Shown here: one piece after another, positions 34,275-58,355 of the stretch
How the letters are laid out: each line of letters starts with the position of its first letter
How positions within the stretch are numbered: the stretch's first letter is position 1
DNA from: an uncultured Myxococcales bacterium
GTDB lineage: Bacteria > Myxococcota_A > SURF-8 > CAYNVS01
Direction: 5' to 3'
NCBI GenBank assembly: GCA_964400725.1
Contig: CAYNVS010000005.1
Coordinates: 8,632-72,631, forward strand
Length of the DNA: 64,000 nucleotides
Program-made: the position numbers and the translations under genes
The notes under the pieces: generated by a model
Told to the model about the DNA's origin: nothing
Seen by the model: the letters and a program-made list of their open reading frames with translations, nothing else
Database searches by the model: none

Positions 34275-35606
34275 TTATTGCAACGGCTTGGTATTCTCCG
34301 AGACGATTTCTCCCCATTTGTCCGCCTGAAGCGTAAACGTATCAAACGGCTCGTCGTACTTGCCAAGCTCGAACGCCGACATGGTAAGCTTGTCGCATCC
34401 GGCTTCGAAATACAAAAAGTGATGAACGTAACGATTTACCTTCGTTTCCGGCCATTCCTTGCAATATTCGTCAAGAGTTCCGCCTCCGCCGCCTAAAATC
34501 ATGTGCGCCACGCCGTCTTTCATGCCGCGCTCGTAGTCGTGCGTATGCCCCGAAAGGTAAGCGTGAAATTTATTGGCGGCAAGCATCGGCCAAAGCCATT
34601 CGCGAACCGTAACGTTGCCGTCGTAGCCGCAGTCGCCGGGCGACCAACTTTCGGAAAACGCGTTTTGATGCCCGACGGCAATTCTCCAAGTGGCGGCTTT
34701 GGCCTCAGGCGATTCTATCGCGCCCTTCAACCATTTGGAAATCGGCGTCTCGTGCGGATTTTCCGGGTCGATGACTATGTCGAACCAAGCTTTGTTCGTG
34801 TCTATCATCACAAAAAATACGTTTCCATAGGTAAACGAATAAAAACTTTCCGACTCCGGATCGTCTGGAAGCGAAGGCGGATAGCTCGCGTATTTATAAA
34901 AGAAAGGGCTGTTTCCTTCGTGGTTGCCGATGGCTACAAACAACGGAACCGAATGACCGATCGGACGAAGCGGGTCGTAAAATTCGGTTTTCCAGCCGGG
35001 TCCCCAGCCCCCGCTTCCGACTTCGTCGCCGGCGTGAATGGTAAGATAAGGCTGTTTGGCCGCCATCGCCTCGAACAAAAGCGAGCTCACCTCCGGATGA
35101 CTCTGCGTGTCGGAAATCGCCACAAATTTAATAGGCGCGCCCTTATGCGGGGCGGTATAAAATTCGTAAACCGGCGAGCTTTTATCGCAGGATGAAACCT
35201 TATAATAATATCGGGTATCCGCGGTCAGACCCGTTGCGCGTATTTCGTGCATAGTCTTTGGCTCCGCGTCTTCGGCCAGCAGGTCGAGCTTATCGGCCGT
35301 TTTGCCGTATTCAACCTTTGAGCCGCACTCCGTTTCCGTTTCCCACATTATTGTCGTAGAAGTTTCGTCCGTGAACATAAGATACGGCCCTATGTAAAAA
35401 ACTTCTTCCTTATTAATTGTAAAGGGTCTGGCGGCTATTTCCGCAGGGCAAAGAGGCGTTTCCTCGGCTTCGAGCGATTCTTGTTCCAAATCCAAATCGT
35501 CGTCCGAATTCGTTTTCGCGTCTGACGATTCTGCGCAGCCGAAAAAGAAGGCGGCGCATAAAAACAAAATTGCGGCGGACGGCGGCAATAGACGTTCTTT
35601 CTTCAT
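34275..35606 (-). CDS. metallophosphoesterase lipoprotein, purple-acid-phosphatase-like
   Basis: Lipobox FFFGCAESS. Calcineurin-like motifs GDEVGSGG, GNHEGN and GHTHDYER after an N-terminal FN3-like region. Confidence 0.7.
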   Translation of the reverse strand: MKKERLLPPSAAILFLCAAFFFGCAESSDAKTNSDDDLDLEQESLEAEETPLCPAEIAARPFTINKEEVFYIGPYLMFTDETSTTIMWETETECGSKVEYGKTADKLDLLAEDAEPKTMHEIRATGLTADTRYYYKVSSCDKSSPVYEFYTAPHKGAPIKFVAISDTQSHPEVSSLLFEAMAAKQPYLTIHAGDEVGSGGWGPGWKTEFYDPLRPIGHSVPLFVAIGNHEGNSPFFYKYASYPPSLPDDPESESFYSFTYGNVFFVMIDTNKAWFDIVIDPENPHETPISKWLKGAIESPEAKAATWRIAVGHQNAFSESWSPGDCGYDGNVTVREWLWPMLAANKFHAYLSGHTHDYERGMKDGVAHMILGGGGGTLDEYCKEWPETKVNRYVHHFLYFEAGCDKLTMSAFELGKYDEPFDTFTLQADKWGEIVSENTKPLQ

Positions 35607-35952
35607 TTTTTAACGCTCCTGAGGCTTTGATTCTGCATAAAACCGGAACTTAAACGCGCAGTTTCCGGCTGGAAACTCTATTCTAACGAAAAACTAACAC
35701 AAAACGCGCGTTCCGACAAGCGAAACGCTTAACTAAAGCGGCCGGGAAAATAGATAGAAAATTCCTTTCCGCCCGGAATGTCCGGCTTGAACAAAAACGC
35801 GAAAACCGCCTAGAACGCGGAGTTTTTTATTTGATTGCGCCGTTTTTCGACTTCTTAACCATCCAAGCGCATGCGCCCAATCTTTAATTAGGAATAAACG
35901 GTAAGAAGTCTGATTTTTCAACTGTAAAAGGCCTTGACAATACGGCTTTAAT

Positions 35953-35970
35953 GATAATAGTTTCTATTAA
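35953..35970. promoter_or_regulatory. candidate Fur/PerR box (ATAATAG-ttt-CTATTAA inverted repeat)
   Basis: gATAATAGtttCTATTAac lies 17-34 bp upstream of the perR-like start, a 7-N3-7-type AT-rich palindrome similar to Per/Fur boxes. Confidence 0.35.
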
Positions 35971-35986
35971 CGTTAAGGAGAAACGA

Positions 35987-36436
35987 ATGGAAGCGACCTC
36001 TTCAAAAAGAAAAAAAGTTTCAAGCAAGCGGACGCGGACGACGCGTCAGAAGAAAATCGTTTTAAACTATCTTCAAAGCGTGCGCTGTCATCCTACCGCG
36101 GAAGAAACGTACGAGTCGGTTAAAAAAGCGGCTCCCAAAATAAGTCTTTCGACCGTTTACCGAATTCTCGAATCGCTTGCCGAAGACGGAATAATTTTGA
36201 AACTGGCAAGCCCCGACGGCCCCATGCGCTTCGACGGCTTCGTTCACAACCACAAACATATTCGCTGCTGCGTCTGCGGAAAAACGGAAGACGTCGCCGA
36301 TGGTATTGACATCGAGCTGAAAATGCCCAAAATGGATATAAACGGCTTTGAAAACGTCAAGGTTAATCTCGAAATTACAGGAATTTGTCCCGAATGCGTA
36401 AAACGCTCGGAAAATATTGAAAAAGACCGTTCTTAA
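35987..36436 (+). CDS. perR: Fur-family transcriptional regulator, PerR-like
   Basis: Fur-family wHTH (YRILESLAEDGIILKL) with CxxC...CxxC structural Zn site (CCVCGKT...CPEC). RBS AGGAGA. Heads an operon of peroxide/superoxide defence genes. Confidence 0.8.
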   Translation: MEATSSKRKKVSSKRTRTTRQKKIVLNYLQSVRCHPTAEETYESVKKAAPKISLSTVYRILESLAEDGIILKLASPDGPMRFDGFVHNHKHIRCCVCGKTEDVADGIDIELKMPKMDINGFENVKVNLEITGICPECVKRSENIEKDRS

Positions 36437-36462
36437 TTTTACAATCTGAAAGGAGACTGACT

Positions 36463-36717
36463 ATGGGATGCTGTTGCTGCAAGCCGAAGACCGAAGCTAA
36501 GGAAAAGACCGGACTGGACGAAACGCAGAAGAAAATTATCAAGGCTATGGCCGAGATTAAAAAACCGTCGGGATGCAAAGACATCGCGGACAAGGCTGGA
36601 CTGGAATCGCCGTCGGTGGCGGGCAAACTGCGCGGATTAAAAACAGCCGGCTTGGTTGAAAGCCCGGAAGAAGGAAAATACGTTCTAACCGCTTCGGGCA
36701 AAAAAGAAGCGAAATAA
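36463..36717 (+). CDS. small poly-cysteine (MGCCCC) winged-helix-like protein
   Basis: 84 aa. The N-terminus MGCCCCKPK is followed by an HTH-like segment IADKAGLESPSVAGKLRGLKTAGLVE. RBS AAAGGAGA. Sits between perR and rbr. Confidence 0.5.
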   Translation: MGCCCCKPKTEAKEKTGLDETQKKIIKAMAEIKKPSGCKDIADKAGLESPSVAGKLRGLKTAGLVESPEEGKYVLTASGKKEAK

Positions 36718-36789
36718 AAATGCGCGAATCGTTGAATTTGCGCCGTATAAACGCTAAACTCACGTCTTAATTCCTGAAAGGAGAATACG

Positions 36790-37368
36790 ATGGCCTCGAT
36801 TAAAGGGACGAAAACCGAACAGAATTTGCTTAAAAGTTTCGCCGGAGAATCTCAGGCGCGCAACCGTTACGCGTTTTTTGCAAGCGCGGCCAAAAAAGAA
36901 GGCTACGAGCAAATCGCGGCAATATTCGAGGAAACCGCCAACCATGAAAAAGAACACGCCAAGCGTTTCTTCAGCTTTCTCGAAGGCGGAGAGCTTGAGA
37001 TTACGGCGTCTTTTCCGGCGGGAGTAGTGGGAACCACGCTTGAAAACCTTAAAGCCGCCGCAATGGGCGAAAATCACGAGCATACCAGCATGTATCCAGA
37101 GTTTGCAGCCGTCGCCCGCGAAGAAGGCTTCGCCGAGATAGCGCTTCTGTTTGATAACGTCGCCAAGGCCGAAAAATACCATGAAGAACGCTACCTTGCG
37201 CTCGCAAAGAACGTCGAGGAAGGTACGGCTTTCAAAAAAGAGGGAAAGGTCGCGTGGAGATGCAGGAATTGCGGATTCATTCACTACGGCGAGGAAGCTC
37301 CCAAGCAGTGCCCCGCGTGCAAGCACGCCCAGTCTTACTTCGAGCTGTGGGTCGAGCGCTGGGCGTAA
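36790..37368 (+). CDS. rbr: rubrerythrin
   Basis: Diiron ferritin-like domain with C-terminal rubredoxin-like CxxC...CxxC ([24 protein letters not shown]); 192 aa. Confidence 0.93.
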
Positions 37369-37424
37369 AGCCTTTAAGCGCTGTGAACATATAGGCCAAA
37401 TCAACGAAAAAAAGGAGAACTATA

Positions 37425-37871
37425 ATGAGCCATCTGGACGAGATTTTTGACTATGCGATAGAAAAAGAGCAGGAAGCGCACGATTTCTACGTTTCGCTCG
37501 CCGGGAAAATGAAGAACCCGACGGTTGCCGAAATCTTTAAAGGTTTCGCGCATGAAGAAGCCGGACACAAGAAGAAGCTGGAAGCCCTGAAGGCCGGCAA
37601 GATGGAAATGAAAGTTAAAGAAAGCGTGAAAGACCTCAAAATCGGCGATTATCTAGTCGATATGAAACCGGGCGCGGAAATGACTTTTCAGGACGCTCTT
37701 ATAATCGCAATGAAACGCGAAAAAGCCTCGTTCAAGCTGTACTCGGATTTGGCCGAAATATCAAACGACGCCGAGGCGCGTCAGATTTTTCTGGGACTCG
37801 CCCAGGAAGAGGCGAAGCATAAGCTCCGCTTCGAGCTCGAATACGACGAAATGATTTTAAAAGACAACTAA
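37425..37871 (+). CDS. ferritin-like diiron protein, rubrerythrin family without rubredoxin domain, paralog 3
   Basis: ExxH motifs EAGH and EAKH; 148 aa; RBS AAGGAG. Confidence 0.6.
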   Translation: MSHLDEIFDYAIEKEQEAHDFYVSLAGKMKNPTVAEIFKGFAHEEAGHKKKLEALKAGKMEMKVKESVKDLKIGDYLVDMKPGAEMTFQDALIIAMKREKASFKLYSDLAEISNDAEARQIFLGLAQEEAKHKLRFELEYDEMILKDN

Positions 37872-37909
37872 TTTACAATGCTCCTCAAAGGAGCGGAAGG
37901 AGACCCAAA

Positions 37910-38422
37910 ATGGAAAGAACAGGCATTATTACTTTTAAAGGAAACCCCCTCACCCTTATCGGCGAAGAGGTTAAGGTCGGCGGCGCCGCCCCCAATTTTA
38001 CCGTATTGAAAAACGATCTGTCGCCTGTATCTCTATCGGATTTCGCCGGAAAAACATTAATAATTTCGGCGGTTCCGTCGCTCGACACCCCCGTATGCGA
38101 TACGGAAACAAGAAAATTCAACAAGATTGCGACGGAATTGGGCGAGAACGTCGTCGTTCTCACCGTCAGCATGGATCTGCCTTTCGCTCAGGCTAGATGG
38201 TGCGGAGCCGCGGGCATCGACAAAGTCGTAACCGCATCCGACCATAAAGACGCTTCTTTCGCATCCGCCTTCGGCCTTCTCATCAAAGAGCTTCGGCTGC
38301 TGGCCCGCTCGGTCTTCGTCGTTGACGGAAAAGGGGTTTTACGCTACGCTCAACTTGTTAAGGAAGTTACGGAAGAGCCGAATTACGAGGAAGTAATTAA
38401 CGCGGTTAAGGAAATTCTGTGA
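37910..38422 (+). CDS. tpx: thiol peroxidase (atypical 2-Cys peroxiredoxin)
   Basis: Tpx N-terminus FKGNPLTLIGEEVKVGGAAPNFTV and peroxidatic Cys in SLDTPVCDTE; 170 aa. Confidence 0.9.
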   Translation: MERTGIITFKGNPLTLIGEEVKVGGAAPNFTVLKNDLSPVSLSDFAGKTLIISAVPSLDTPVCDTETRKFNKIATELGENVVVLTVSMDLPFAQARWCGAAGIDKVVTASDHKDASFASAFGLLIKELRLLARSVFVVDGKGVLRYAQLVKEVTEEPNYEEVINAVKEIL

Positions 38423-38445
38423 ATTTTTATTGGAAGGAGGACTAA

Positions 38446-38826
38446 ATGACGGAAAGAAACAGCGTATATAAATGCTCGGTATGCGGCAATATCGTTGAAG
38501 TTCTGCACGGCGGCGCGGGAGAATTGGTTTGCTGCGGCGTTCCGATGAAGAAGCTCAACGAGGGCGAAGTCGATGCGGCAAAAGAAAAACACGTGCCGGT
38601 AATCGAGAAAATCGAGGGCGGATACAAAGTCAAGGTTGGCGGCGTCGCGCACCCGATGGAAGAAAAACATTATATCGAATGGATTGAGCTCGTTACGCCT
38701 AACCGCGTAATGCGCAAATATCTCAAGCCCGGCGAAGCTCCCGAAGCCGAGTTTAAAACTTGCGCGACGGAAGTAACCGCCCGCGAATACTGCAACCTTC
38801 ACGGGTTGTGGAAGGCGACTCTGTAA
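38446..38826 (+). CDS. dfx: desulfoferrodoxin (2Fe superoxide reductase)
   Basis: Desulforedoxin-like N-terminus ([12 protein letters not shown]...LVCCG) and SOR domain HVPVIE...[13 protein letters not shown]; 126 aa. Confidence 0.92.
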
Positions 38827-38856
38827 CAATAGCTACCTCTTGAAAGGAGGCTTACA

Positions 38857-39348
38857 ATGCTGAAACCCAAAGTATTAAAAGCGTTGAACGACCAAATCAA
38901 CGAAGAGATTTTCTCAGCGTATCTGTATTACGCTATGTCCGCGTGGTTCGAAACGCAGAAGTTCTCCGGTTTCGCCGCGTGGATGCGCGTTCAGGCGGTC
39001 GAAGAGATGAAGCACGCAGACAAGATTTACAAATTCATACTTGAGCGCGGCGGCGAAGTGGAACTGAAAGCGGTTGCGGCGCCGAAAGCGACGTGGAAAA
39101 CCCCGCTCGAAGCGTTCGAGGCGGCGTTGAAGCACGAAGAGCACATCACGGCCTGCATCCATAAGCTGCTTGAGCTTGCCCGCGCGGAAAAAGATTACCC
39201 GACCGAAATCATGCTCGGCTGGTTCGTAACGGAACAAGTCGAGGAGGAAGCGCAGACCGGCGACATCGTCGATAAGCTGAAGATGGTCGGAACGAGCGTA
39301 GGCGGCGTATTCCAGCTGGATCACCGCCTAGGAAAGCGCGAAGATTAG
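38857..39348 (+). CDS. ftn: non-haem ferritin
   Basis: Ferritin four-helix-bundle signature (NEEIFSAYLYYAMSAWFE...EEMKHADKIYKFI); 163 aa. Confidence 0.88.
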   Translation: MLKPKVLKALNDQINEEIFSAYLYYAMSAWFETQKFSGFAAWMRVQAVEEMKHADKIYKFILERGGEVELKAVAAPKATWKTPLEAFEAALKHEEHITACIHKLLELARAEKDYPTEIMLGWFVTEQVEEEAQTGDIVDKLKMVGTSVGGVFQLDHRLGKRED

Positions 39349-39377
39349 TTCCCGCGTCAATCGACAAATTCGCGAAA

Positions 39378-39406
39378 CAAAAGGCAGGCGCAAAGCCTGC
39401 CTTTTT
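39378..39406. terminator. bidirectional Rho-independent terminator between ftn (+) and gltX (-)
   Basis: aaaaGGCAGGCgcaaaGCCTGCCtttttattt: GC stem with A-run upstream and T-run downstream. Confidence 0.75.
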
Positions 39407-39416
39407 ATTTCATCAT

Positions 39417-40895
39417 TTACATCGCTCGCTTGAGCCGCTTTTTAATCGTCTCCGCCGGCAGCAAAGTTAGAACGTCGTGCAGCGGCAACCCGCGGAGCCT
39501 GCCCGTCAGCATTGCTCGCAGCGGTTTGTATGCCTGCATCCCTTTGCGGCCGGTAAGCTCGCAGAATTTATTTAAAAATTCCTCCGCCTGAGCGGGCGTA
39601 AGGGAGTCTGTTTCAAACGGCTCGAACGCCGCCAGCGTTTCAAGCGCAATTTGCGGCAAAGTCTTGTTTTCCTCTTTGTTTAAAACCGCCGCCGCTTGAG
39701 CGTCCGGCGCGAATTCGCTCGTAAAATCTACGATTTTCTCCGCAAGCTCCTTTAACGTGGAGCTTTCGCTCTTCAACGCGCAGGCCGCGCCGCGCAAGGC
39801 CGCTTCGTCCGCCCACGGCTCCAATACCGGCGAACCGGACAAAATGAAAGGTTCGACCAGCGCGAACGCCTCGTCGCCGGTCTTTTCTCGCAGATGGCGG
39901 GCGTTCAACCGCTCAAGCCTTTTTACGTCGTGCACCGCCGCGGCTTTGCCGTAGCGGTTTATCTCGAAACTTTCAACGCATTGCGCGACCGTTTTGAAGT
40001 CGTCCTCGCCTTCGGCGAGCCCCGCTCCCATTATCGTCAGATGATTGACGACCGCCTCCGGCAAAAAACCCGCCTCTTTAAGGCTTGCGACGTCCGCGCT
40101 GCCCAGCCGCTTTGAAAGGGGCTTTCCTTCCGGATCGACGATTAAAGGCAAATGCGCGAATTTAGGCGGCTGCGCGCCGAGAGCTTTCATAATTTCCACC
40201 TGACGCGCAGTGTTGGAAAGATGGTCGTCGCCGCGGATAATATGAGTGATGCGCATGGCCGCGTCGTCGTACGCGCCCGCGAAAATAAATAAAAAACTGC
40301 CGTCGGCGCGGACGATTACCGGATCGCCGCCGAGACTTTCGCTGTTGAACTCCAGCGTTCCGCGCAGCATGTCGCAAACTTCCACCATCTTATCGTCCGG
40401 CAGGCGGAAACGCCAAACGTGCGGCTCGCCCGCCGTTACGCGCGCGCGCGCTTCTTCGGGCTTGACGCCGCGGCACAGGTTGTCGTATTTAGGCGGTTTT
40501 CCGCTTCGACGCTGCGTTTCTTTAAGTATTGAAAGCCGCTCCTGCGAGCAGAAGCACGGGTATGCGAACCCTTTATCGGCAAGTTCCGCAAGCGCGCCTT
40601 TAAACAGCTCAAGCCTTTGCGATTGAAAGTAAGGCGCGTAAGCGCCGCCTTGCTCAGGCCCTTCGTCCGCGTCCATGCCTAGCCATTTAAGGTCGCGTAT
40701 AATCGACTGCACGCTTTCCGGCGAGCTCTTTGCGGCGTCGGTGTCTTCGATTCGCAGAATGAACGAGCCGCCTCGGCTTCTGGCGAAAAGCCAATTTATC
40801 AAAGCCGTACGTACGTTTCCTAAATGGAGCGTCCCCGACGGACTCGGCGCAAATCTTACTCTTACGGCGTCTTTGCCGCGCGCTTCGCAATTCAT
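39417..40895 (-). CDS. gltX: glutamate--tRNA ligase
   Basis: Class I aaRS HIGH-type motif (PSPSGTLHLGNVRTAL) and KMSK-type loop (PLSKRLG); 492 aa. Confidence 0.93.
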   Translation of the reverse strand: MNCEARGKDAVRVRFAPSPSGTLHLGNVRTALINWLFARSRGGSFILRIEDTDAAKSSPESVQSIIRDLKWLGMDADEGPEQGGAYAPYFQSQRLELFKGALAELADKGFAYPCFCSQERLSILKETQRRSGKPPKYDNLCRGVKPEEARARVTAGEPHVWRFRLPDDKMVEVCDMLRGTLEFNSESLGGDPVIVRADGSFLFIFAGAYDDAAMRITHIIRGDDHLSNTARQVEIMKALGAQPPKFAHLPLIVDPEGKPLSKRLGSADVASLKEAGFLPEAVVNHLTIMGAGLAEGEDDFKTVAQCVESFEINRYGKAAAVHDVKRLERLNARHLREKTGDEAFALVEPFILSGSPVLEPWADEAALRGAACALKSESSTLKELAEKIVDFTSEFAPDAQAAAVLNKEENKTLPQIALETLAAFEPFETDSLTPAQAEEFLNKFCELTGRKGMQAYKPLRAMLTGRLRGLPLHDVLTLLPAETIKKRLKRAM

Positions 40896-49767: not shown

Positions 49768-51918
49768 TTACAGCCTCGATTTTGAAACCCTTAAGGCGAA
49801 CTCTACGCCTTCCAGCAGGCGCGGAAGAGAAATCTCGAAATAAAGCGCCGTTCCCTGATAATTGCGCTCAAAACCCGCCTCGGATACCGATACGGTCTCA
49901 ATCGGATGAGCCGCGCACCGCGTCGGCTCGGACAACCACACATCCAGCGCGACGCCCCTGTATTCGTCGATAATTTTAATCGAGCTTGCGGTTGCGTCTA
50001 TTTCAGCGTTCAGCGGCGTTTTTTCTCCGCCGTCAATAGATATGCCGCGGTAGTCGTCCAGCGCGTTAAGCGTAAAGTCGTACTCTATATAAACGCTTTT
50101 ATCGTCGAGCTCTGCGCCTTGTTCGAGATTTGCGTTTTCCAGCCAGAAGCCGAAACCGATTTCCGTTTTGTCCGCCGCGACCGCAAAATATTTTCCTACG
50201 TCGGCGCTCGCGCCCTCCGTCAAAGCGACTGAGCCCGCCGTAAAGCAGACGTTTATCGTCTCTCCGTCGGCCTCGCATTCGTCCAAATTCATGGGCGTAT
50301 TGTGCAAAGCTCCGAGCGCGTCGAACGCCTGACTCCTGAAATCCTCGGCCTTCAGCCCTTTCTTCGCGACAAAGGCGCGGAAAGGCAGTCTCGTCCATTT
50401 GTCGATTACCAGATATTTATCCAGCCCTTTCTCTTTCGAGGCGACTATATCGTGAATGGATGCGGGTTTTTCGCCTTCTTCCGCTTCCTTTTCCGCGTCC
50501 TTAACTTTTCGGTGATACGCTTCCATGCGCCGGGTCAGAACGTCGGTGTAAGAAACGCGCTCCTCAAGGTCGCACCATAAGTAAAGGCATCCGCCTTCCC
50601 TTCCGCTGAAAACGGCCGTGTGCGAAGACGCGCAGACTATCGCGTCGCTTCGGTTGCCGTCGCAGTTGAAATCGACGTTCTTTACCGCCGACGGCTTGTT
50701 CCACGGCAAAAGCCTGTCGGCCTCGATAAGCCTGTCGTACACGGCGCCGCGTAAAAACGGCAGATAAAGCCCGCCGAACAAACCGTGCCAGTAGGCGTCG
50801 TTGCACTGTCCCATTAACATCGCGAAGTCCGCTTCGCCGACTTTTTTAGAGTTCTTTTTATCCTCAAGCAGAACGTTTATTTCTTTGCTTAAAAACTGCA
50901 TGTACTTGTGCATGCGGTTCGATTCCTCGTACTTCGTCAGAAATTCGTCCCAGAAGCCGCCTTTTATTTTAGCGAATCCTCTTTCGCCCAGCTCGCGGTA
51001 AAGCTCTTCCTGCTCTATCGTCGCCTCCGGCGGCAGAGCCCATTCCATCATTTCGCGGTAGCTGGTGGTCGGCAACGCGACTCGGCCGTTGGAAATTTTC
51101 GCGTCCGCGACTTCGGAAAGAAGAGCGGTATTTAACCAGTCTGAATTTTCCTCAACGGCCGTTAGAAATTTTTCAAGCCACTTTTTTTCGTAAACCCACT
51201 CGAAGGTGCCCGGCCATACGCCGAATTTTTCGCCGTCGTCAAGATAGGTCAATACATGCCCGATGCCGGAGTCCTTTTTTATTAGATTCAGCGGCTCGCC
51301 TTCCAGCTCCTTCGCCCATTCTTTCAACTCGGCGATGAATTCTTTCACTTCCTTGAAAGGAACGCGGTAGCGCAAAGCCTCGCTTATCGGGAATATTTTC
51401 GTAGTAAAGCCGTGTTTGTCCGCGGCAAAGTACCCTTCGAGGTTGCGGCGTTTCATTCCCGAATAGAAAAAGTGATAATCGTCCACCGCGACGTACTCCA
51501 CGCCCAAAGGCGCGAGTACGCTCGGCAGCGCCGGCTCCCATATGCGCTCGGTGAGCCATATTCCGCGCGGCGTCGCGCCGAACAGCTCGTTTGTAAGAGC
51601 GTTCATCAGCTTAATCTGACGCGCAACGTCGGAGGGCGGAATGGAGCAGAGTATCGCCTCGGATATTCCGCTTCCAAGAATTTCCGCCCGCCCTTTTTCG
51701 ATAAGGCGGCGGATTTTTTTTAGATAATCAGGCTCATGCTCTTTAAGCCAAAGAAGCAGCGGACCTGAGAAATGGACGTTCCATTTAACGCTCGGATGTT
51801 TTTCAATAGTTTCTATGAACGGCATGTAACAGCGCGCCAGCGAATCCTTCATCACATGGTCGAAATTTCCATAAGGCTGGTGATTGTGAATGCCGATGCA
51901 AAGAGTCAGCTTGCTCAT
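49768..51918 (-). CDS. glycoside hydrolase family 57 (alpha-glucan-active: 4-alpha-glucanotransferase / branching-enzyme-like)
   Basis: GH57 signatures IGIHNHQP and HFSGPLLLWLKEHEP; 716 aa. Confidence 0.8.
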   Translation of the reverse strand: MSKLTLCIGIHNHQPYGNFDHVMKDSLARCYMPFIETIEKHPSVKWNVHFSGPLLLWLKEHEPDYLKKIRRLIEKGRAEILGSGISEAILCSIPPSDVARQIKLMNALTNELFGATPRGIWLTERIWEPALPSVLAPLGVEYVAVDDYHFFYSGMKRRNLEGYFAADKHGFTTKIFPISEALRYRVPFKEVKEFIAELKEWAKELEGEPLNLIKKDSGIGHVLTYLDDGEKFGVWPGTFEWVYEKKWLEKFLTAVEENSDWLNTALLSEVADAKISNGRVALPTTSYREMMEWALPPEATIEQEELYRELGERGFAKIKGGFWDEFLTKYEESNRMHKYMQFLSKEINVLLEDKKNSKKVGEADFAMLMGQCNDAYWHGLFGGLYLPFLRGAVYDRLIEADRLLPWNKPSAVKNVDFNCDGNRSDAIVCASSHTAVFSGREGGCLYLWCDLEERVSYTDVLTRRMEAYHRKVKDAEKEAEEGEKPASIHDIVASKEKGLDKYLVIDKWTRLPFRAFVAKKGLKAEDFRSQAFDALGALHNTPMNLDECEADGETINVCFTAGSVALTEGASADVGKYFAVAADKTEIGFGFWLENANLEQGAELDDKSVYIEYDFTLNALDDYRGISIDGGEKTPLNAEIDATASSIKIIDEYRGVALDVWLSEPTRCAAHPIETVSVSEAGFERNYQGTALYFEISLPRLLEGVEFALRVSKSRL

Positions 51919-52794: not shown

Positions 52795-55700
52795 CTAGGC
52801 TCGGCGTCCCGCCAGCATCCGTTTCCACTGGGCGTCGAAGAGTCTGTCTATGGTCGAGAAGCACGCCGGCCTGCGGTCGAACTGCTTTGCCGCGTCGGAT
52901 ACGGCGACGAATTTGGCCTTGCCGTTTTCTCTCGCAAATTCTTTCGCGAACAGGAGCTCTCCGCCGTTTCCGTCCCCGCCGTCGCTCCAAAGGAACGAGC
53001 CGGTCTCGCCTATCGTCTTAATCGGCGCGTAATACGGGTTCGCTTCCGCTATCATGGCGCGCGCGTCTTCAAGCGTCGGCTCCGCGCGGCCCGCCGCGAG
53101 GGCGTAAACGCCGCTTAAAACCTCGAAGCCCGTCTTGCCCGCCGGCGGCTCGAACACGCGCTTGAAAGCCGTTACTCTGCGTTCGGCGCTGGTCGCGCTT
53201 CCTTCCTGCTCGAAATAAGCGCTGCCGGGAATTGCGACGTTCGCCGCGCGCGTCGTTTCGGTCTCGAACATATCCACGACGCCCACGAACTCGGCCTGTC
53301 CCATAAGCTCGGCGTATTCGCGGTTAATGGCGAAGTCTTCGCCGAAAATAAACAGCCCCTTAATCTTGCGCTCCGCAATCATCTGTCTCAGCTCCATCAG
53401 CGAGCGGGCTCCCGAAAAAGAGGCGCCCTTAAAGCGCGGACTCTGAGAAACCGCGTCCGCGTGGGCCGACAAGTCTTTGTGCCCCTGATAGTTGGAATGT
53501 TCGTGCGCGAACATTATTCCGTTGTTCTCCTTGCCGATTTTGCCCGTCAGCAGAAGAATGTTGGCTATCATTTGCAAATCGCCGCCGCTGCGCTCCAGCG
53601 CCGAATCGATATTGTAAACAAAGACGACGCTCTTCGCCGGGTCGGCGATCAGGTTCGCGAACTTTTCAATTTTTTCTTTCTCTACGCCGGTCGCCTTTTC
53701 GGCTTTGTCCGCGGAGACGTTTACGGTTTTCGCAAACTCTTCGTACCCTTCGGTTCGGGCGTCTATGAAAGCGCGGTCAAGCAGGTTGTTTTTAATAATG
53801 TAATTAGCCGCCGCGCTTAACAGCGTCGCGTTGGTTCCGCGCTTGCCGTCCAGCCGCAAAGCGGAATGCGCCGTCAATTCGCTTTCGGTCGAGCTTACGC
53901 AGACCAAAGCGGCTCCGCGCTTTGCGGCGCGCTTTATTGAGAACCCAAGCACCGGATTTTCTCTCGTTACGTCGCTGTTTATTACGACGATTACGTCGGC
54001 GCGCTCAAGCTGCCTGCGGGAAAGCGTCGAGGCGGTAAGACCAAATCCGGCGTACAGGTCCCGGTCTTCGTCGTTGCGCGCCGTGTCGTAAAGGCTCGCG
54101 ATATTGTTGGTTTTAAAAACGCCGCGGGCGAGACGCTCGACAAGCATTACCTCTTCGTTGCTCGCTTTGGGCGAAATGAAGAACGCGACGCTGCCCGCGC
54201 CGTGCTTGTCCGCAACCGCTTTGAGTCCTTCGACGAGCTTTTTCTGCGCCGCGGCCATGTTTGTCGGAATTCGCTTTCCGCCTTCTATTATATGCGGCTC
54301 CCGCAGACGCATATCGGTAAGAATGTACCGATTGCCAAAGCGGCCTCTCATGCAAAGCTCGCCGTTTACGAACCGCGACTCTTTTTTGGCCGTTACGTAC
54401 CACACGTCGTCGTTCTTCTTGTTGAAGACGAGCCTGCATCCTACGCCGCAGTAGCCGCATAACGACTCGCTCTCAGTCGTCCGCCACGGCCCCGGCTTTT
54501 TTACGTCGAGGGCGAAGTCTATCGCTCCCGTGGGGCAGACTTCGATGCAGTTTCCGCAACTGATGCACGTGGTATTTTGCAGCGGCTTTTCCATCGACGG
54601 GCGGACAATCATGTCGTAGCCGCGGTTGATGAAGCCCAGCGCCGAGACCATTTGCAGGTCGGCGCACAAACGGACGCACTTGCCGCAAAGAATGCACTTG
54701 TTCGGGTCGAGCGTAATGTACGGGTGGCGGTCGTCAACCTTATACTTCTTCACCTTGCCGGAGAAACGCTTCTGGTCGGCGGCGTATTCGCCCGCGTAAC
54801 GCTTGAGGTCGCATGTAAATACCGCCGAGCAGCCGCACGACAGGCAGCGCTCGGTTTCGTGTTTCGCGCTCTCGGCCGTAACTCCGTGGTCGAGTTCCGT
54901 CCACGTCGAGATTCTCGTCGCGGGGTCGTCTTTTACCGTATGGCTGCGATGCGTCTTTTCGTATTTCGCGAAGAAGTCGGCGGGAAGCTCGCTCAAATTC
55001 GTTTTTTTGCTTAAAAACTCTTTATAAGCCGGAACCAGCTTGCCGGTTTGAATGTATTTGTCGATGGTATAAGCCGCTTTGCGCCCGGCGCCTATCGCGT
55101 CGGCGGCGGCCATCGGCCCGCTTTCGGCGTCTCCGCCCGCGAACACGCCCGGCACGTTGGTGGCGTAAGCGTCTTTCTCGACGATAATAGTCTCCCACTT
55201 TGTACTCTTCACGTCGCCCATGGCGTTGCCGCGAAGGCCCGTAAGGTCAACGTCTTGGCCGATGGCGGCGATTATCATGTTGCACGGGACGTCCTCTTCC
55301 GAGCCTTCCAGCGGCACGGGGCGGCGTCTGCCGGACGCGTCCGGCTCGCCCAGCGTCATTTTCTGGCAGCGCAGAGCCTTCAGGCTTCCATTTTCGCCGC
55401 GCACTACTTCCATGGGCGCAACAAGATATTTAATCTCGACGCCTTCGTCCAGCGCGTCCTGCACTTCTTCAGGGTCGGCGGGCATTTCCTCGGCGGTTCT
55501 GCGGTATAGCACCTGCACTTTGGCCGCGTTGCAGCGAAGCGCGGTGCGCGCCGCGTCGATTGCGGTGTTGCCGCCGCCGACCACGACGACCGTCCCTTTC
55601 AATTCCGGGGGAGCCGCCGCTTTTTTAACTTCGCCTAAAAAGTCCACGCCGCCGACGACGCCCGGCGTATCTTCGTTTTTAATGCGCATCGGCTTGGCCT

Positions 55701-56574
55701 TCTGGGCGCCAAGCGCGAGGTAAATCGCCTCGAACCCTTGCGCCTTCAGGTCGTCAAGCGAGAAATCTTTGCCCAAACGCTTGTTCGTCTCGACATCGAC
55801 GCCGTGGTCGGTGATGTACTGTATTTCTTTGTCCAGCGTCTCCTGCGGCAGACGGTAGTCGGGGATGCCGTACCTTAACATGCCGCCTAGCTTTGGCTGA
55901 GCGTCGAACACTTTAACCTTGTAACCGGCGCGGGCAAGGAAGTAAGCGGCCGTAAGGCCCGCGGGCCCGCCGCCGACTATCGCGACCTTATGCCCGTTTG
56001 AGGGCGGAACTGCCGGCTTGGGCAGGTTATCGTTCTCAAGGTCGGAGACGTAACGCTTTACAAAGTTGATGCCAACCGCGGATTCGTCCACTTCGCGCCT
56101 TCTGCACGCCGCCTCGCAGTAACGAACGCAAACTCTGCCGCAGACCAGCGGAAACGGGTTGGTGGAGCGTATCAGCTCCAGCGCCTCGTAATGCCTGCCG
56201 GCGTGCGCCAGCGCAAGGTAACCCTGCACGTCAACGTCGATGGGGCATTTCTCGTAACAGGGGCCGCGGCAGTCGGCGAAATGATTGGACATGAGCATGT
56301 CCAGCGCGTCCTTGCGGGCCTTGTAAACGCGTTCGTTGTCGGTTGTGATAACCATGCCTTCGCGCGCTTCGGTCGTGCACGAAAGGACGAGCTTCGCGAA
56401 CCCTTCGACTTCGACGACGCAAAGCAGGCAGCTTCCTACCGCCGGAAGCCTCGGGTCGTAGCAGAGAGTCGGTATCTCCACGCCGTTTTCCCGCGCGACG
56501 TCAAGAATTGTCTTCCCCGCCGCCGTCGTAATTTCGGCGCCGTTGATTTTAACTTTTATAGTGTTAGCCATAAG
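52795..56574 (-). CDS. NuoG-like Fe-S subunit with embedded GltD/NfnB-like FAD-NAD(P)H oxidoreductase domain (Bfu-family large subunit; no H-cluster or FDH catalytic motifs)
   Basis: Starting at MANTIKVKING (RBS AAGAGG), the domain order is 2Fe-2S (CYDPRLPAVGSCLLC), then His-ligated 4Fe-4S (HFADCRGPCYEKC), then a GltD-type Cys cluster (LVCGRVC...CEAAC). The FAD/NAD(P) domain follows (VAIVGGGPAGLTAAYFLARAG), then 2x[4Fe-4S] (CILCGKC...CISCGNC), the MopB Fe4S4 domain (CGYCGVGC), and a molybdopterin-like domain lacking the Sec/Cys-His catalytic pair. Confidence 0.7.
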   Translation of the reverse strand, partial: LMANTIKVKINGAEITTAAGKTILDVARENGVEIPTLCYDPRLPAVGSCLLCVVEVEGFAKLVLSCTTEAREGMVITTDNERVYKARKDALDMLMSNHFADCRGPCYEKCPIDVDVQGYLALAHAGRHYEALELIRSTNPFPLVCGRVCVRYCEAACRRREVDESAVGINFVKRYVSDLENDNLPKPAVPPSNGHKVAIVGGGPAGLTAAYFLARAGYKVKVFDAQPKLGGMLRYGIPDYRLPQETLDKEIQYITDHGVDVETNKRLGKDFSLDDLKAQGFEAIYLALGAQKAKPMRIKNEDTPGVVGGVDFLGEVKKAAAPPELKGTVVVVGGGNTAIDAARTALRCNAAKVQVLYRRTAEEMPADPEEVQDALDEGVEIKYLVAPMEVVRGENGSLKALRCQKMTLGEPDASGRRRPVPLEGSEEDVPCNMIIAAIGQDVDLTGLRGNAMGDVKSTKWETIIVEKDAYATNVPGVFAGGDAESGPMAAADAIGAGRKAAYTIDKYIQTGKLVPAYKEFLSKKTNLSELPADFFAKYEKTHRSHTVKDDPATRISTWTELDHGVTAESAKHETERCLSCGCSAVFTCDLKRYAGEYAADQKRFSGKVKKYKVDDRHPYITLDPNKCILCGKCVRLCADLQMVSALGFINRGYDMIVRPSMEKPLQNTTCISCGNCIEVCPTGAIDFALDVKKPGPWRTTESESLCGYCGVGCRLVFNKKNDDVWYVTAKKESRFVNGELCMRGRFGNRYILTDMRLREPHIIEGGKRIPTNMAAAQKKLVEGLKAVADKHGAGSVAFFISPKASNEEVMLVERLARGVFKTNNIASLYDTARNDEDRDLYAGFGLTASTLSRRQLERADVIVVINSDVTRENPVLGFSIKRAAKRGAALVCVSSTESELTAHSALRLDGKRGTNATLLSAAANYIIKNNLLDRAFIDARTEGYEEFAKTVNVSADKAEKATGVEKEKIEKFANLIADPAKSVVFVYNIDSALERSGGDLQMIANILLLTGKIGKENNGIMFAHEHSNYQGHKDLSAHADAVSQSPRFKGASFSGARSLMELRQMIAERKIKGLFIFGEDFAINREYAELMGQAEFVGVVDMFETETTRAANVAIPGSAYFEQEGSATSAERRVTAFKRVFEPPAGKTGFEVLSGVYALAAGRAEPTLEDARAMIAEANPYYAPIKTIGETGSFLWSDGGDGNGGELLFAKEFARENGKAKFVAVSDAAKQFDRRPACFSTIDRLFDAQWKRMLAGRRA

Positions 56575-56585
56575 CCTTACCTCTT

Positions 56586-58355
56586 TTAGTCCTTCCACAC
56601 CGCGTTGAAGTTGCAAACCGTTATGCACTTGCCGCACTTAATACACTTCGCATGGTCGATTACGTGAGCGGCCTTGCGCTCGCCGGTTATTGCGCCCGAA
56701 GGGCAGTCCTTTGCGCAAAGCGTGCAGCCGGTGCACTTCGCCGCGTCTATGGAATAATTCACAAGCAGCGCGCACGAATGCGCCGGGCATTTTTTATCGT
56801 TAATGTGCGCCTCGTACTCCTCGCGGAAGTATTTAATGGTGGTCAGCGCGGGGTTAGGAGCCGTCTGGCCCAAGCCGCACTGGCTGGTATTGCGGATGAA
56901 CTCGCCAAGTTCCTCCAGCTTGTCGAGGTCTTCGGGTTTTCCCTTCCCTTCGACGATGCGGTTTAAAATTTCCAGCATTCTCAGCGTGCCGACGCGGCAG
57001 CTGGTGCATTTGCCGCACGACTCGTTCTGAGTGAATTCCAAAAAGAAGCGCGCCATCTCAACCATGCAGGTGTCTTCGTCCACTACTATCATTCCGCCCG
57101 AACCCATGATTGCGCCGGTGGAAGTAATCTTTTCGTAGTCGATTTGCGTGTCGCCCATGCTTGCCGGAATGCAGCCGCCGGACGGGCCGCCGATTTGAAT
57201 GGCCTTAAATTTTTTGTCGTCTTTAATTCCGCCGCAGATGTCGAAGACGATGTCGTTGATGGTTATTCCCATCGGCACTTCGACGAGGCCGGAGCGTTTT
57301 ACTTTGCCGGCCATGGCGAAAACTTTCGTCCCCTTGCTCTTCTCGGCGCCGAACGCGGCGAATTTCTCCGGACCGTTGAGGATAATCCACGGCAGGTTTG
57401 CGAACGTCTCGACGTTGTTGATGTTTGAGGGTTTGCCCCAAACTCCCTTGACCGCCGGATAAGGCGGACGGACGCGCGGAGTGCCGCGCCTGCCTTCTAT
57501 GGAATTGATGAGGGCCGTTTCCTCGCCGCAGACGAACGCGCCCGCGCCTTCTTTAATTTTAAGATGGAACGAGAAATTCGTTCCGAAAATATTATCGCCC
57601 AACAATCCGCGCTCGGTCGCCTGCTTTATGGCGTTGCGGAGGCGGAAAATCGCCTTGGGGTACTCCGCGCGGCAGTAAATATAACCGAAGTTCGCGCCTA
57701 TCGCGTAGCCGCACATCATCATTCCTTCCAGAACCGAGTGCGGATCGCTTTCCAGCACCGACCTGTCCATGAACGCGCCCGGATCGCCTTCGTCGGCGTT
57801 GCAAATTACGTATTTCTCGTTTCCCGGCGATTGGCGGGCGAATTTCCATTTGACGCCCGTCGGAAACCCGGCGCCGCCGCGGCCTCTGAGGCCGGACTTG
57901 GTTACTTCCTCAATGAGCTGTTCCGGCGTCATCGTTTTGAGAACTTTTTCAATCGCCTTGTAGCCGTCCACGGCGAGATAGTCGTCGATGGACATCGGGT
58001 CGATTACGCCGCAGTTGCGCAGAACTATGCGCTGCTGCTTTGCCACGAACGGAGCTTCTTCGCCTTCTTTGAAGTCTTTAAGCACGAGCCATTCGGGGAT
58101 GGGCGCGCCCTTCTCGACGTGTTCCTCGAAGATTTTTTCCGCGCGTTCGGGGGTTACGTCGCCGTATAAAAATTTCTCGCCGTCCTTCTTCACCTCGACG
58201 AGGACTTCTCGGTAACACATTCCCATGCAGCCCGTTTCTCCGACCGCGACGCCCGGAAGTTTTTTAGTCTGGGCTATTTCATGGAGTTTTTCGAGCACTT
58301 TGTCCGCTCCGGCGCTGCTTCCGCACGTTCCGGTTCCGACCGTTATCGTTATCAT
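56586..58355 (-). CDS. NuoF-like NAD(P)H-binding flavoprotein subunit (HydB/HndC-type) with N-terminal 2Fe-2S thioredoxin-like and C-terminal 2x[4Fe-4S] domains
   Basis: GRGGAGFPTGVKWKF FMN/NADH motif, thioredoxin-like Cys motif ETGCMGMCY, and C-terminal ferredoxin Cys clusters CTGCTLCAKDCP and CIKCGKCITVC; 589 aa. Confidence 0.85.
   Translation of the reverse strand: MITITVGTGTCGSSAGADKVLEKLHEIAQTKKLPGVAVGETGCMGMCYREVLVEVKKDGEKFLYGDVTPERAEKIFEEHVEKGAPIPEWLVLKDFKEGEEAPFVAKQQRIVLRNCGVIDPMSIDDYLAVDGYKAIEKVLKTMTPEQLIEEVTKSGLRGRGGAGFPTGVKWKFARQSPGNEKYVICNADEGDPGAFMDRSVLESDPHSVLEGMMMCGYAIGANFGYIYCRAEYPKAIFRLRNAIKQATERGLLGDNIFGTNFSFHLKIKEGAGAFVCGEETALINSIEGRRGTPRVRPPYPAVKGVWGKPSNINNVETFANLPWIILNGPEKFAAFGAEKSKGTKVFAMAGKVKRSGLVEVPMGITINDIVFDICGGIKDDKKFKAIQIGGPSGGCIPASMGDTQIDYEKITSTGAIMGSGGMIVVDEDTCMVEMARFFLEFTQNESCGKCTSCRVGTLRMLEILNRIVEGKGKPEDLDKLEELGEFIRNTSQCGLGQTAPNPALTTIKYFREEYEAHINDKKCPAHSCALLVNYSIDAAKCTGCTLCAKDCPSGAITGERKAAHVIDHAKCIKCGKCITVCNFNAVWKD

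Follow-up and report, generated by a model that had tools for sequence, protein, structure and literature searches.

A large unannotated family of Cys-armed mini winged-helix proteins genetically coupled to PerR, seen from the second gene of a PerR-type oxidative-stress operon

What does an 84-residue protein that begins with MGCCCCKPK contribute to a peroxide-response operon? PerR, the textbook peroxide sensor of Gram-positive bacteria and anaerobes, is generally seen as acting on its own. The question is raised by a stretch of 64,000 nucleotides (hereafter the window; contig CAYNVS010000005.1, positions 8,632 to 72,631 of the forward strand, assembly GCA_964400725.1 of an uncultured Myxococcales bacterium), in which positions 35934-39405 of the plus strand form one unit made up of a sigma-70-like promoter, seven genes and one terminator (Table 1). 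By itself, this is an ordinary PerR-type operon of anaerobes for the detoxification of reactive oxygen species (ROS). The interesting part is its second gene, which starts 26 nt after the perR-like gene and is followed by the rubrerythrin gene (rbr): its product belongs to a large unannotated family of mini winged-helix proteins with an N-terminal Cys arm, and this family is genetically coupled to PerR. As judged from the sequences assembled here, PerR probably has an unrecognised partner.

The small open reading frame (ORF) is a genuine gene. Comparison with locus L008, a Logan contig 87% identical across the coding region that served as the reference both for the ratio of non-synonymous to synonymous substitution rates (dN/dS, Nei-Gojobori) and for the promoter footprint described below, revealed 20 synonymous and 11 non-synonymous codon differences, corresponding to a dN/dS of 0.09 (0.20 for perR and 0.03 for the partial rbr). 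Residues 45-66, which comprise the recognition helix and the first wing strand, carry synonymous changes only. We take the gene to be real because this constraint is accompanied by a confident winged-helix model, by hundreds of homologues with conserved synteny and by a good ribosome-binding site (RBS), AGGAG, 8 nt 5' of the ORF. The first 11 codons (MGCCCCKPKTE; 36463-36495 aligned with 695-727 of L008) show no change in 33 nt, compared with 38 changes in the remaining 219 nt (17%), and the 26-nt spacer to perR shows a single change. This pattern suggests that the tail codons are constrained beyond the protein sequence, for example by translation initiation or coupling.

The AlphaFold2 (AF2) model calculated from an alignment of 59 sequences has a predicted local distance difference test score (pLDDT) of 80 for the 84-aa protein. 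Residues 1-19 are disordered, with a pLDDT below 50 for the CCCC run, and are followed by a helix (20-32), a short strand, two helices (38-45 and 49-62), two wing strands (65-69 and 72-75) and a last helix (77-83). The model thus describes a minimal winged helix that follows a flexible, basic, lysine-rich and Cys-rich arm; the pI of the protein is 9.1. Foldseek comparison with the PDB returned generic winged-helix domains only (MarR-type, IdeR/MntR and Sso10a, TM-score 0.6-0.7). The original prediction, made from the sequence alone, had called the product helix-turn-helix-like, which is borne out by the confident model and by the winged-helix profile and Foldseek matches, and had pointed to four consecutive Cys residues at its N-terminus. 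These residues (C3-C6, encoded at 36469-36480) are indeed kept in the three closest orthologous sequences (P0001, P0004 and P0002; locus L009, with protein P0003, was left out because it is a faulty assembly of this locus, full of errors and frameshifts), and an additional C38 lies at the edge of the beta-sheet. In lipoproteins, a lipobox L-[AS]-[GA]-C comes after a signal peptide that has a hydrophobic core. A lipid-anchor reading of MGCCCC was rejected, as the Cys run starts at residue 3 and continues into KPKTEAKEK, with no hydrophobic segment, signal peptide or lipobox.

An exhaustive HMMER search of 1.84 billion representatives (E<=1e-3) identified 63 proteins, namely the 87%-identical orthologue P0002 (E 4e-40) and 62 other cluster representatives, beginning with relatives at E 3e-15 to 1e-11 over residues 9-84; nearly all of the matches are 66-95 aa long. 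The family profile search gave 471 clusters, and a word-index homology search returned near-identical orthologues only. Among the matches rejected, L007 from the scan of GTDB genomes is a TetR-type regulator that matched through the word DETQKKII alone, and the long multi-stretch matches P0019 and P0057 are unrelated repetitive proteins. There is no dedicated Pfam or NCBIfam model for the family: the 59 members tested are spread over generic winged-helix models (Mrr_N, MarR_2, HTH_5, IclR, TrmB, Csa3 HTH and Sso10a), and each Pfam or NCBIfam match of the 84-aa protein itself is to a generic winged-helix model and below cut-off. Existing annotations of family members read "hypothetical", "MarR", "ArsR" or "predicted transcriptional regulator", and JGI twice labels a member "Fur family, peroxide stress response regulator". 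The protein had originally been described as outside any known family; this holds in the sense that no curated family contains it, but it is a member of a large uncharacterised family rather than an orphan oddity.

The hallmark of this family is an N-terminal arm rich in Cys that begins at residue 3 or 4, as judged from the sequences of 164 small members that start with Met (the tail being taken as the first 15 residues). Cys is present in the tail of 114 of them (70%), at least twice in 84, and the first Cys occupies position 3 or 4 in 105 of the 114; residue 2 is A, S, G or P in 130/164, and the Cys frequency is 9.9% in the tail vs 3.6% elsewhere. The usual form of the arm is CxC or CxCxC, with starts such as MGCGC, MSCACAC, MAGCGCGC, MKCGCGCAC, MSGCGCGCAC, MGCCKK and MPC(K/R). 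Conservation of the Cys run among homologues had been set in advance as a test of the original prediction: what is conserved is the Cys-rich arm, while the literal CCCC is confined to P0001, P0004 and P0002, with CC in P0066. Three subtypes can be distinguished: (a) a single-Cys MPC tail combined with a PxGC core Cys, found in varied and partly archaeal-looking contexts; (b) no tail Cys and only a PAGC core Cys, in archaeal, Bathyarchaeia-like sequences; and (c) a multi-Cys tail, an invariant wing Cys (SPVRCKY) and frequent PCG and VSC Cys, in Desulfobacterota-type sequences. In this last, RCKY subtype, the tail Cys3 is nearly invariant as well, and AF2 predicts the same winged-helix fold without an alpha1 helix. 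A Cys arm folded back on the core cysteines of the RCKY subtype was considered and rejected, the model lending it no structural support (arm pLDDT <50). The window protein is a hybrid: its core is of subtype (a), with C38 and the wing EEGKY, but it has a multi-Cys tail. In both subtypes, the conserved non-tail Cys (C36/C38 on beta1, or the wing Cys) is located in or next to the beta-sheet, and standard winged-helix topology would make these positions neighbours.

The genomic context of the family was surveyed in 80 metagenome loci, a set biased to subtypes (a) and (b), which were screened with the window proteins and had their neighbours clustered; subtype (c) loci were obtained by exact-protein look-up. 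A Fur-family gene (FUR) immediately precedes the winged-helix gene, overlapping it or ending no more than 26 nt before it, in the window and in L087, L090, L097, L092/93, L100 and L101, and at a distance of 69-75 nt in L085. Genes for rubrerythrin, peroxiredoxin, desulfoferrodoxin, rubredoxin or FprA follow downstream in the window, L085, L087, L090, L096, L097, L098 and L099, and the L029-L047 group has ROS-detoxification genes on both sides of the winged-helix gene. The recurring arrangements are PerR, winged helix, rubrerythrin and desulfoferrodoxin (L085, with ferritin in addition, and L087); FUR, winged helix, rubrerythrin, peroxiredoxin, desulfoferrodoxin, rubredoxin, an unknown gene and FprA (L090, L097); and stand-alone pairs of FUR and winged helix with overlapping or abutting frames (L092/93, L100, L101). 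A winged-helix gene is followed by rubrerythrin, peroxiredoxin, cytochrome c, desulfoferrodoxin, ferritin and rubredoxin in L096, where the contig ends just upstream, by rubredoxin in L098 and by peroxiredoxin in L099. The order rubrerythrin-like gene, rubrerythrin, winged helix, neelaredoxin is found in L029, L038, L039, L041 and L047, whose members have an MPCARKPK tail. Stress genes are absent around the winged-helix gene of L094; in L056 and L088 it follows genes of a DmsB/NrfD-type complex, and subtype (b) members occupy housekeeping archaeal contexts without ROS genes. The Fur position of L094 (3758-3949) and L099 (3719-3928) is taken by small called ORFs (63 and 69 aa) that have no Pfam match and are not obviously alike.

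Presence of a tail Cys is associated with a FUR or ROS-gene neighbour: among 57 de-duplicated loci, which are not phylogenetically independent, such a neighbour is present/absent in 14/13 with a tail Cys vs 3/27 without (odds ratio 9.7, Fisher p 0.001). L092 and L014 were misclassified by automatic start choice, and their correction strengthens the association. Of the tabulated multi-Cys-tail contexts, 10 out of 11 (L092 counted) have a FUR or ROS neighbour, and L101 adds another FUR pair. Overall, many Cys-tailed members and nearly all of the sampled multi-Cys-tailed ones are genetically tied to Fur/PerR or to anaerobic ROS-detoxification genes, so that the search for homologues and their neighbourhoods proposed with the original prediction did yield a family with recurring neighbours of this kind. 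Other associations were observed in the same survey. Two single-Cys (MPC/MAC) members on thermophile-type contigs adjoin Znu-like metal ABC transporter genes, one for a binding protein (L027, 5252-6617) and one for an ATPase and a permease (L034, 2050-3697), and because of this there are hints that some relatives may act as metal-uptake regulators. In L092/L093 and L101, which come from different samples, the FUR and mini-winged-helix pair is divergent from the same ABC-2-type operon (ATPase and permease), followed by TatD and/or ThiF; this operon may be a conserved regulatory target of the pair.

In five clusters with a mutual identity below 50% (P0024, P0054, P0058, P0061 and P0125), Fur/PerR and the winged helix are joined in one polypeptide. 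An internal Met is kept in the linker of four of the five (P0058 being without it), and at least two linkers, as read from the protein sequences, could still encode a Shine-Dalgarno element (e.g. ...EKEKGGVK-MSESE..); because of these remnants, the fusions are suggested to have arisen by recent stop-codon loss between coupled genes. In our reading, the fusions together with the overlapping frames are the strongest evidence that PerR and the mini-protein act together. A different kind of joined frame is seen in L055 (377-1057) and L089 (3669-4352), where an archaeal-type member forms the C-terminal part of a ~225-aa ORF after a conserved ~150-aa domain (…YILRISTDPWVKQVYDLKKYYPG…); either a further type of fusion or an in-frame upstream gene could account for this arrangement.

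The product of the first gene of the operon is, by its diagnostic residues, PerR-like rather than a certified equivalog. The NCBIfam PerR models score best, ahead of the Fur and Zur models, all of them below cut-off (NF052545, 91.5 bits vs 180; NF047406, 87.6 bits vs 200). Its closest relative in the PDB is Bacillus subtilis PerR (BsPerR, 2FE3; E 3.5e-19), followed by Streptococcus pyogenes PerR. The alignment is ungapped, with an offset of +2, over the stretch that holds the metal ligands, where H35, D83, H89, H91 and D102 correspond to H37, D85, H91, H93 and D104 of BsPerR, which we take to be its regulatory metal ligands (with Asp rather than Glu at 104). Likewise, C94/C97 align to C96/C99 and the second CxxC (CPEC) to the C-terminal CxxC of BsPerR, the two CxxC motifs making up its structural Zn(Cys)4 site. 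The perR-like gene had been recognised in the original prediction with a start coordinate that has to be corrected: the true start is the ATG at 35987, which has an AAGGAG RBS and agrees with the 149-aa JGI gene call, and the upstream ATG at 35951 falls within the promoter.

A candidate Per box overlapping the promoter had also been predicted, and one is present, after correction of its letters and coordinates, as the perfect palindrome TAATAGTTTCTATTA; no other palindrome with arms of 6 bp or longer occurs in the 160 nt before perR. By motif statistics alone it is unremarkable: the exact motif occurs once in the window, and matches with <=3 mismatches number 4 vs 1.27 expected, a count reached in 5 of 100 shuffles. 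The palindrome is supported because the promoter block is invariant in L008 (100% identity over the 57 nt from CTTGACA to the ATG), while the sequence 5' of CTTGACA has diverged so far as to be unalignable. A near-copy with 2 mismatches, CAATAGTTTCTATGA, lies at 51804-51818 inside a 716-aa minus-strand ORF (49768-51918). It is most likely a chance match, being intragenic and part of a match count within the chance range. Other operons with FUR and a mini winged helix have AT-rich Fur-like boxes that differ in sequence and lie on the -10 element or immediately downstream of it, for example AAATCATTATC in L090 and L097 and ATGATATCGATTATCAT in L092; as sequences, these differing boxes fit the lineage-specific PerR boxes predicted for delta-proteobacteria (PMC545781). 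In L098 (3960-3990), a perfect 7-1-7 palindrome, TAGTAATCATTACTA, stands just 5' of the RBS, upstream of a mini-winged-helix and rubredoxin pair that has no adjacent Fur gene, and looks like a Fur/PerR-type box acting in trans.

These observations can be combined into a scheme in which 35934-39405 would be a self-contained, autoregulated oxidative-stress operon of a strict anaerobe. The PerR-type repressor most likely binds the palindrome over the -10 element and would silence the promoter until peroxide inactivates it. The mini-protein, presumably made together with PerR in roughly equal amounts, would act with PerR at the promoter, binding either the DNA beside it or PerR itself. Its thiolate-rich arm and core Cys could form a metal-thiolate site or a reversible disulfide, so that thiol-based sensing (of O2, disulfide stress or metal status) would be added to the iron-catalysed histidine oxidation of PerR, by the same logic as in the N-terminal Cys arms of the ArsR/SmtB sensors CadC and Corynebacterium glutamicum ArsR. 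For the core of this scheme, the mini-protein as a thiol- or metal-sensing accessory working with PerR at the promoter, we see about an even chance; whether it binds DNA or PerR, how the Cys arm works chemically and in which direction regulation runs are matters of inference.

Several points weigh against this scheme. The function of the family rests on context and analogy, and AF2 leaves the Cys arm disordered in both subtypes modelled, with no preformed metal site predicted. The Cys pattern is variable: the wing Cys, invariant in RCKY proteins, is missing from the window protein, and the tail has no Cys in ~30% of the members, most of them archaeal with a housekeeping context. Of the tail-Cys loci, 13/27 have neither a FUR nor a ROS-gene neighbour, and some adjoin Znu-like ABC transporter or respiratory-complex genes. 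Since the fusions other than P0125 have no Cys arm, PerR-linked members do not all depend on it. The one solved relative, PscE (see below), was modelled as a protein-bound photosystem subunit, not as a DNA binder. Finally, because there are just two close orthologous promoters, the footprint cannot tell a PerR site from a site of the mini-protein.

A bolder version of the accessory role, to which we assign a rather low probability, would make the mini-protein an obligate second subunit of some anaerobe PerRs, the two making up a heteromeric sensor with a metal or Fe-S centre that PerR and the thiolate arm have in common or that the arm controls; where the genes are fused, the covalent link would stand in for the arm, and the family would be a versatile winged-helix adaptor module for protein partners, as in PscE. 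If so, a pure H2O2 sensor would become a combined sensor of O2, thiols and peroxide. It is also fairly unlikely that the mini-protein is an independent second repressor or activator with its own operator and signal (e.g. zinc, sulfane sulfur or electrophiles) and no contact with PerR. Such independence would suit the members without an adjacent FUR (L094, L098, L099, L056, L088 and many MPC-type loci) and the weak, consistent similarity to the DNA-binding domains of ArsR/SmtB, MarR and MntR/IdeR. On the other hand, reading frames that repeatedly overlap that of Fur, together with no fewer than five independent fusions, argue for action in one complex, and the mini-protein does not have the dimerisation helices used by ArsR and MarR.

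We regard as quite unlikely a metallochaperone or metal buffer, whose arm would hold Zn, Fe or Cu and pass it to, or keep it from, PerR or the operon's iron enzymes (rubrerythrin, desulfoferrodoxin, ferritin) and whose winged helix would serve for docking only. The strongest conservation is found in the basic recognition helix and wing, features dispensable for a chaperone, and the arm is lost in all the fusions except P0125 and missing from ~30% of the family; this is to be set against the resemblance of the CxC, CxCxC and CCCC arms to metallothionein motifs, the fact that all other operon products are metalloproteins or a metal store, the relatives beside Znu-like transporter genes in L027 and L034, and co-translation with PerR and fusions, which fit a dedicated partner.

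A non-regulatory role, either as a PscE-like protein adaptor or as an Sso10a-like basic DNA-coating protein that protects DNA under oxidative stress and whose thiols act as a local oxidant sink, appears distinctly improbable. It draws on the single good match of the family profile in the PDB, 7UEB chain E "PscE" (E 1.3e-12 with A3 and 1.4e-9 with A6), which has the SPxRC wing motif. 7UEB is the reaction centre-FMO supercomplex of Chlorobaculum tepidum, and its chain E, Q8KDI3, was built de novo in cryo-electron microscopy density and described as a "helix-turn-helix subunit" contacting PscC and FMO2 (Puskar et al., PMC9529944). In a 2026 simulation paper, PscE and PscF are small membrane proteins with the locus tags CT0081 and CT1067 (PMC13220206). 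Because the two papers disagree on names and locus tags, the PscE assignment of Q8KDI3 calls for caution, and a winged-helix protein in photosystem density deserves re-examination. Should the assignment be correct, proteins of this fold can act as protein adaptors, and the mini-protein might then bind PerR rather than DNA. The pairwise match between the window protein and PscE is itself marginal (E 0.038). The Sso10a family and structure matches, the basic pI and the archaeal members in housekeeping contexts also agree with a non-regulatory role, but a single small gene beside a repressor gene suggests low, stoichiometric expression and not a coating protein. Finally, the view that the ORF is spurious or merely a functionless Cys-rich leader peptide, which its shortness and the want of a curated family or named homologue might invite, is effectively refuted by its low dN/dS, confident fold, RBS and hundreds of syntenic homologues, and the 72-nt spacer to rbr was rejected as a conserved attenuator or terminator, its fold being not above shuffles (z = -0.88) and its stem broken in L008.

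The accessory role with PerR being the reading we prefer, the remaining parts of the operon can be described briefly. An (A)GGAG(G) motif stands 6-9 nt 5' of every start codon in all seven genes, the intergenic gaps are 23-72 nt, and the scan found a sole convincing terminator. Seven co-directional genes with GGAG-type RBSs and a single terminator, as originally predicted, are thus all present, their named families are matched by profiles, and the description as a compact PerR-headed oxidative-stress operon stands on gene content, family scores and ligand residues. For the 148-aa rubrerythrin-like protein, the Pfam profile search gave no match to a rubredoxin domain. Identical copies of the operon were found in several JGI and Logan metagenome samples.

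Table 1. Features of the operon, with coordinates in the window and the matches on which each assignment rests
Feature	Coordinates	Strand	Basis
-35 element TTGACA	35934-35939	+	consensus scan
Perfect 6-3-6 palindrome, candidate Fur-family (PerR) operator	35955-35969	.	overlaps -10
-10-like element AATAGT (predicted)	35956-35961	+	consensus scan; 16-nt spacer to TTGACA; 10/12 matches
perR-like Fur-family regulator, 149 aa	35987-36436	+	PF01475 87.3 bits (gathering 23.1), residues 16-130
Mini winged-helix protein, 84 aa, Cys-rich N-terminal arm	36463-36717	+	sub-threshold generic winged-helix matches
Rubrerythrin, 192 aa, C-terminal rubredoxin-like domain	36790-37368	+	NF045767 296.9 bits (cut-off 200); PF02915, PF21349
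Rubrerythrin-like ferritin-fold protein, 148 aa	37425-37871	+	PF02915 58.3 bits, residues 6-138
Thiol peroxidase (Tpx), 170 aa	37910-38422	+	NF001808 214.9 bits (cut-off 123)
Desulfoferrodoxin (two-iron superoxide reductase), 126 aa	38446-38826	+	TIGR00320 206.1 bits (cut-off 146.9); PF06397, PF01880
Non-heme ferritin, 163 aa	38857-39348	+	PF00210 155.7 bits; NF007638 119.6 bits, below cut-off 178
Intrinsic terminator, 11-bp stem, A-run before and T-run after	39379-39405	+	terminator scan

The operon is flanked on both sides by minus-strand genes, one for a lipoprotein-like metallophosphatase (ending at 35606) and gltX (39417-40895). Because it lies 12 nt from the stop codon (39417) of the convergent gltX, the terminator is probably shared and bidirectional, ending the transcripts of both the operon and gltX. 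The closest GltX from another source shares 45% identity, with top matches spread over Deltaproteobacteria, Elusimicrobiota, Actinobacteria and Krumholzibacteriota; from its sequences, the source organism appears to be an uncultured, deep-branching anaerobe of a poorly sampled lineage. Elsewhere in the window, a 1280-aa minus-strand ORF (52795-56637) appears, by eye, to combine a 2Fe-2S ferredoxin-like N-terminus, a flavoprotein resembling the glutamate synthase small subunit and a molybdopterin/formate-dehydrogenase-like C-terminus.

No report of a PerR-associated Cys-rich winged helix was found in the literature searched, including the reconstruction of PerR regulons in delta-proteobacteria (PMC545781). 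If a conserved, co-translated and sometimes fused thiolate-arm partner is real, many strict anaerobes would run a two-protein sensor, among them Desulfobacterota, this deep-branching digester lineage and, if the wider family is counted, Bathyarchaeia-type archaea, and such a sensor could explain how O2, peroxide, metal and thiol stress are told apart. Defining the family would better annotate hundreds of "hypothetical" or "MarR/ArsR-like" mini-proteins, and would offer a very small, tractable system for studies of Cys-arm sensing.

Compared with known systems, the family shares with PscE (7UEB_E) the helix layout and the SPxRC wing motif, while PscE, unlike the window protein, is ~59 aa long, apparently has no Cys arm and was built into the model as an accessory photosystem subunit in contact with protein and lipid, not as a regulator. 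The best NCBIfam match of the second gene is an ArsR/SmtB subfamily model, with scores short of the cut-offs (NF033788, 25.2 bits vs 55; PF01022, 19.9 vs 22). The ArsR/SmtB fold runs alpha1-alpha2-alpha3-alphaR-beta1-beta2-alpha5, with alpha1 and alpha5 as the dimer interface; in the AF2 model of the mini-protein, three helices and a wing are followed by a short C-terminal helix, with no alpha1. CadC is an ArsR/SmtB sensor with an N-terminal Cys arm and an alpha3N site, and the ArsR of C. glutamicum binds As(III) via Cys15-Cys16 of one monomer and Cys55 of the other (PMC11868830). Like these two, the mini-protein has a winged-helix core and a flexible N-terminal arm with clustered Cys, possibly pairing with a core Cys; Cys3-6 and Cys38 are present, and AF2 predicts no structured Cys site. 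Unlike the ArsR/SmtB sensors, it is an 84-aa protein without alpha1 and the long alpha5 dimerisation helix, and its context is PerR and ROS rather than metal efflux.

MarR proteins are ~140 aa long, with N- and C-terminal dimerisation helices, and OhrR illustrates the principle of a reactive N-terminal Cys as the sensor. The top Foldseek matches, MarR-family domains and Sso10a, relate the mini-protein to MarR-type peroxide sensors (OhrR, MgrA/SarZ) and to the minimal archaeal Sso10a and Lrs14. In contrast to MarR sensors, it has half their length (84 aa) and no dimerisation helices, its Cys residues lie in a disordered arm and not in helix alpha1, and its MarR scores are low (PF01047, 13.9 bits vs 24.6; PF12802, 13.7 vs 27). 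Falling short as a member of both the ArsR/SmtB and MarR families, it yet plausibly works like an ArsR sensor with an N-terminal arm. In its operon partner, all five regulatory-metal ligands of B. subtilis PerR (2FE3/3F8N) are conserved, as are the Zn(Cys)4 motifs. Among the perR-headed operons of anaerobes are perR-rbr-rdl of Desulfovibrio vulgaris and perR-rbr-roo of Geobacter (PMC545781). Like the operons predicted in that delta-proteobacterial study, the one in the window is headed by perR, contains rubrerythrin-type detoxification genes and has a palindrome at the -10 element; unlike them, it has a 6-3-6 TAATAG/CTATTA box rather than TTATAATnATTATAA, and it adds a second, Cys-tailed winged-helix gene.

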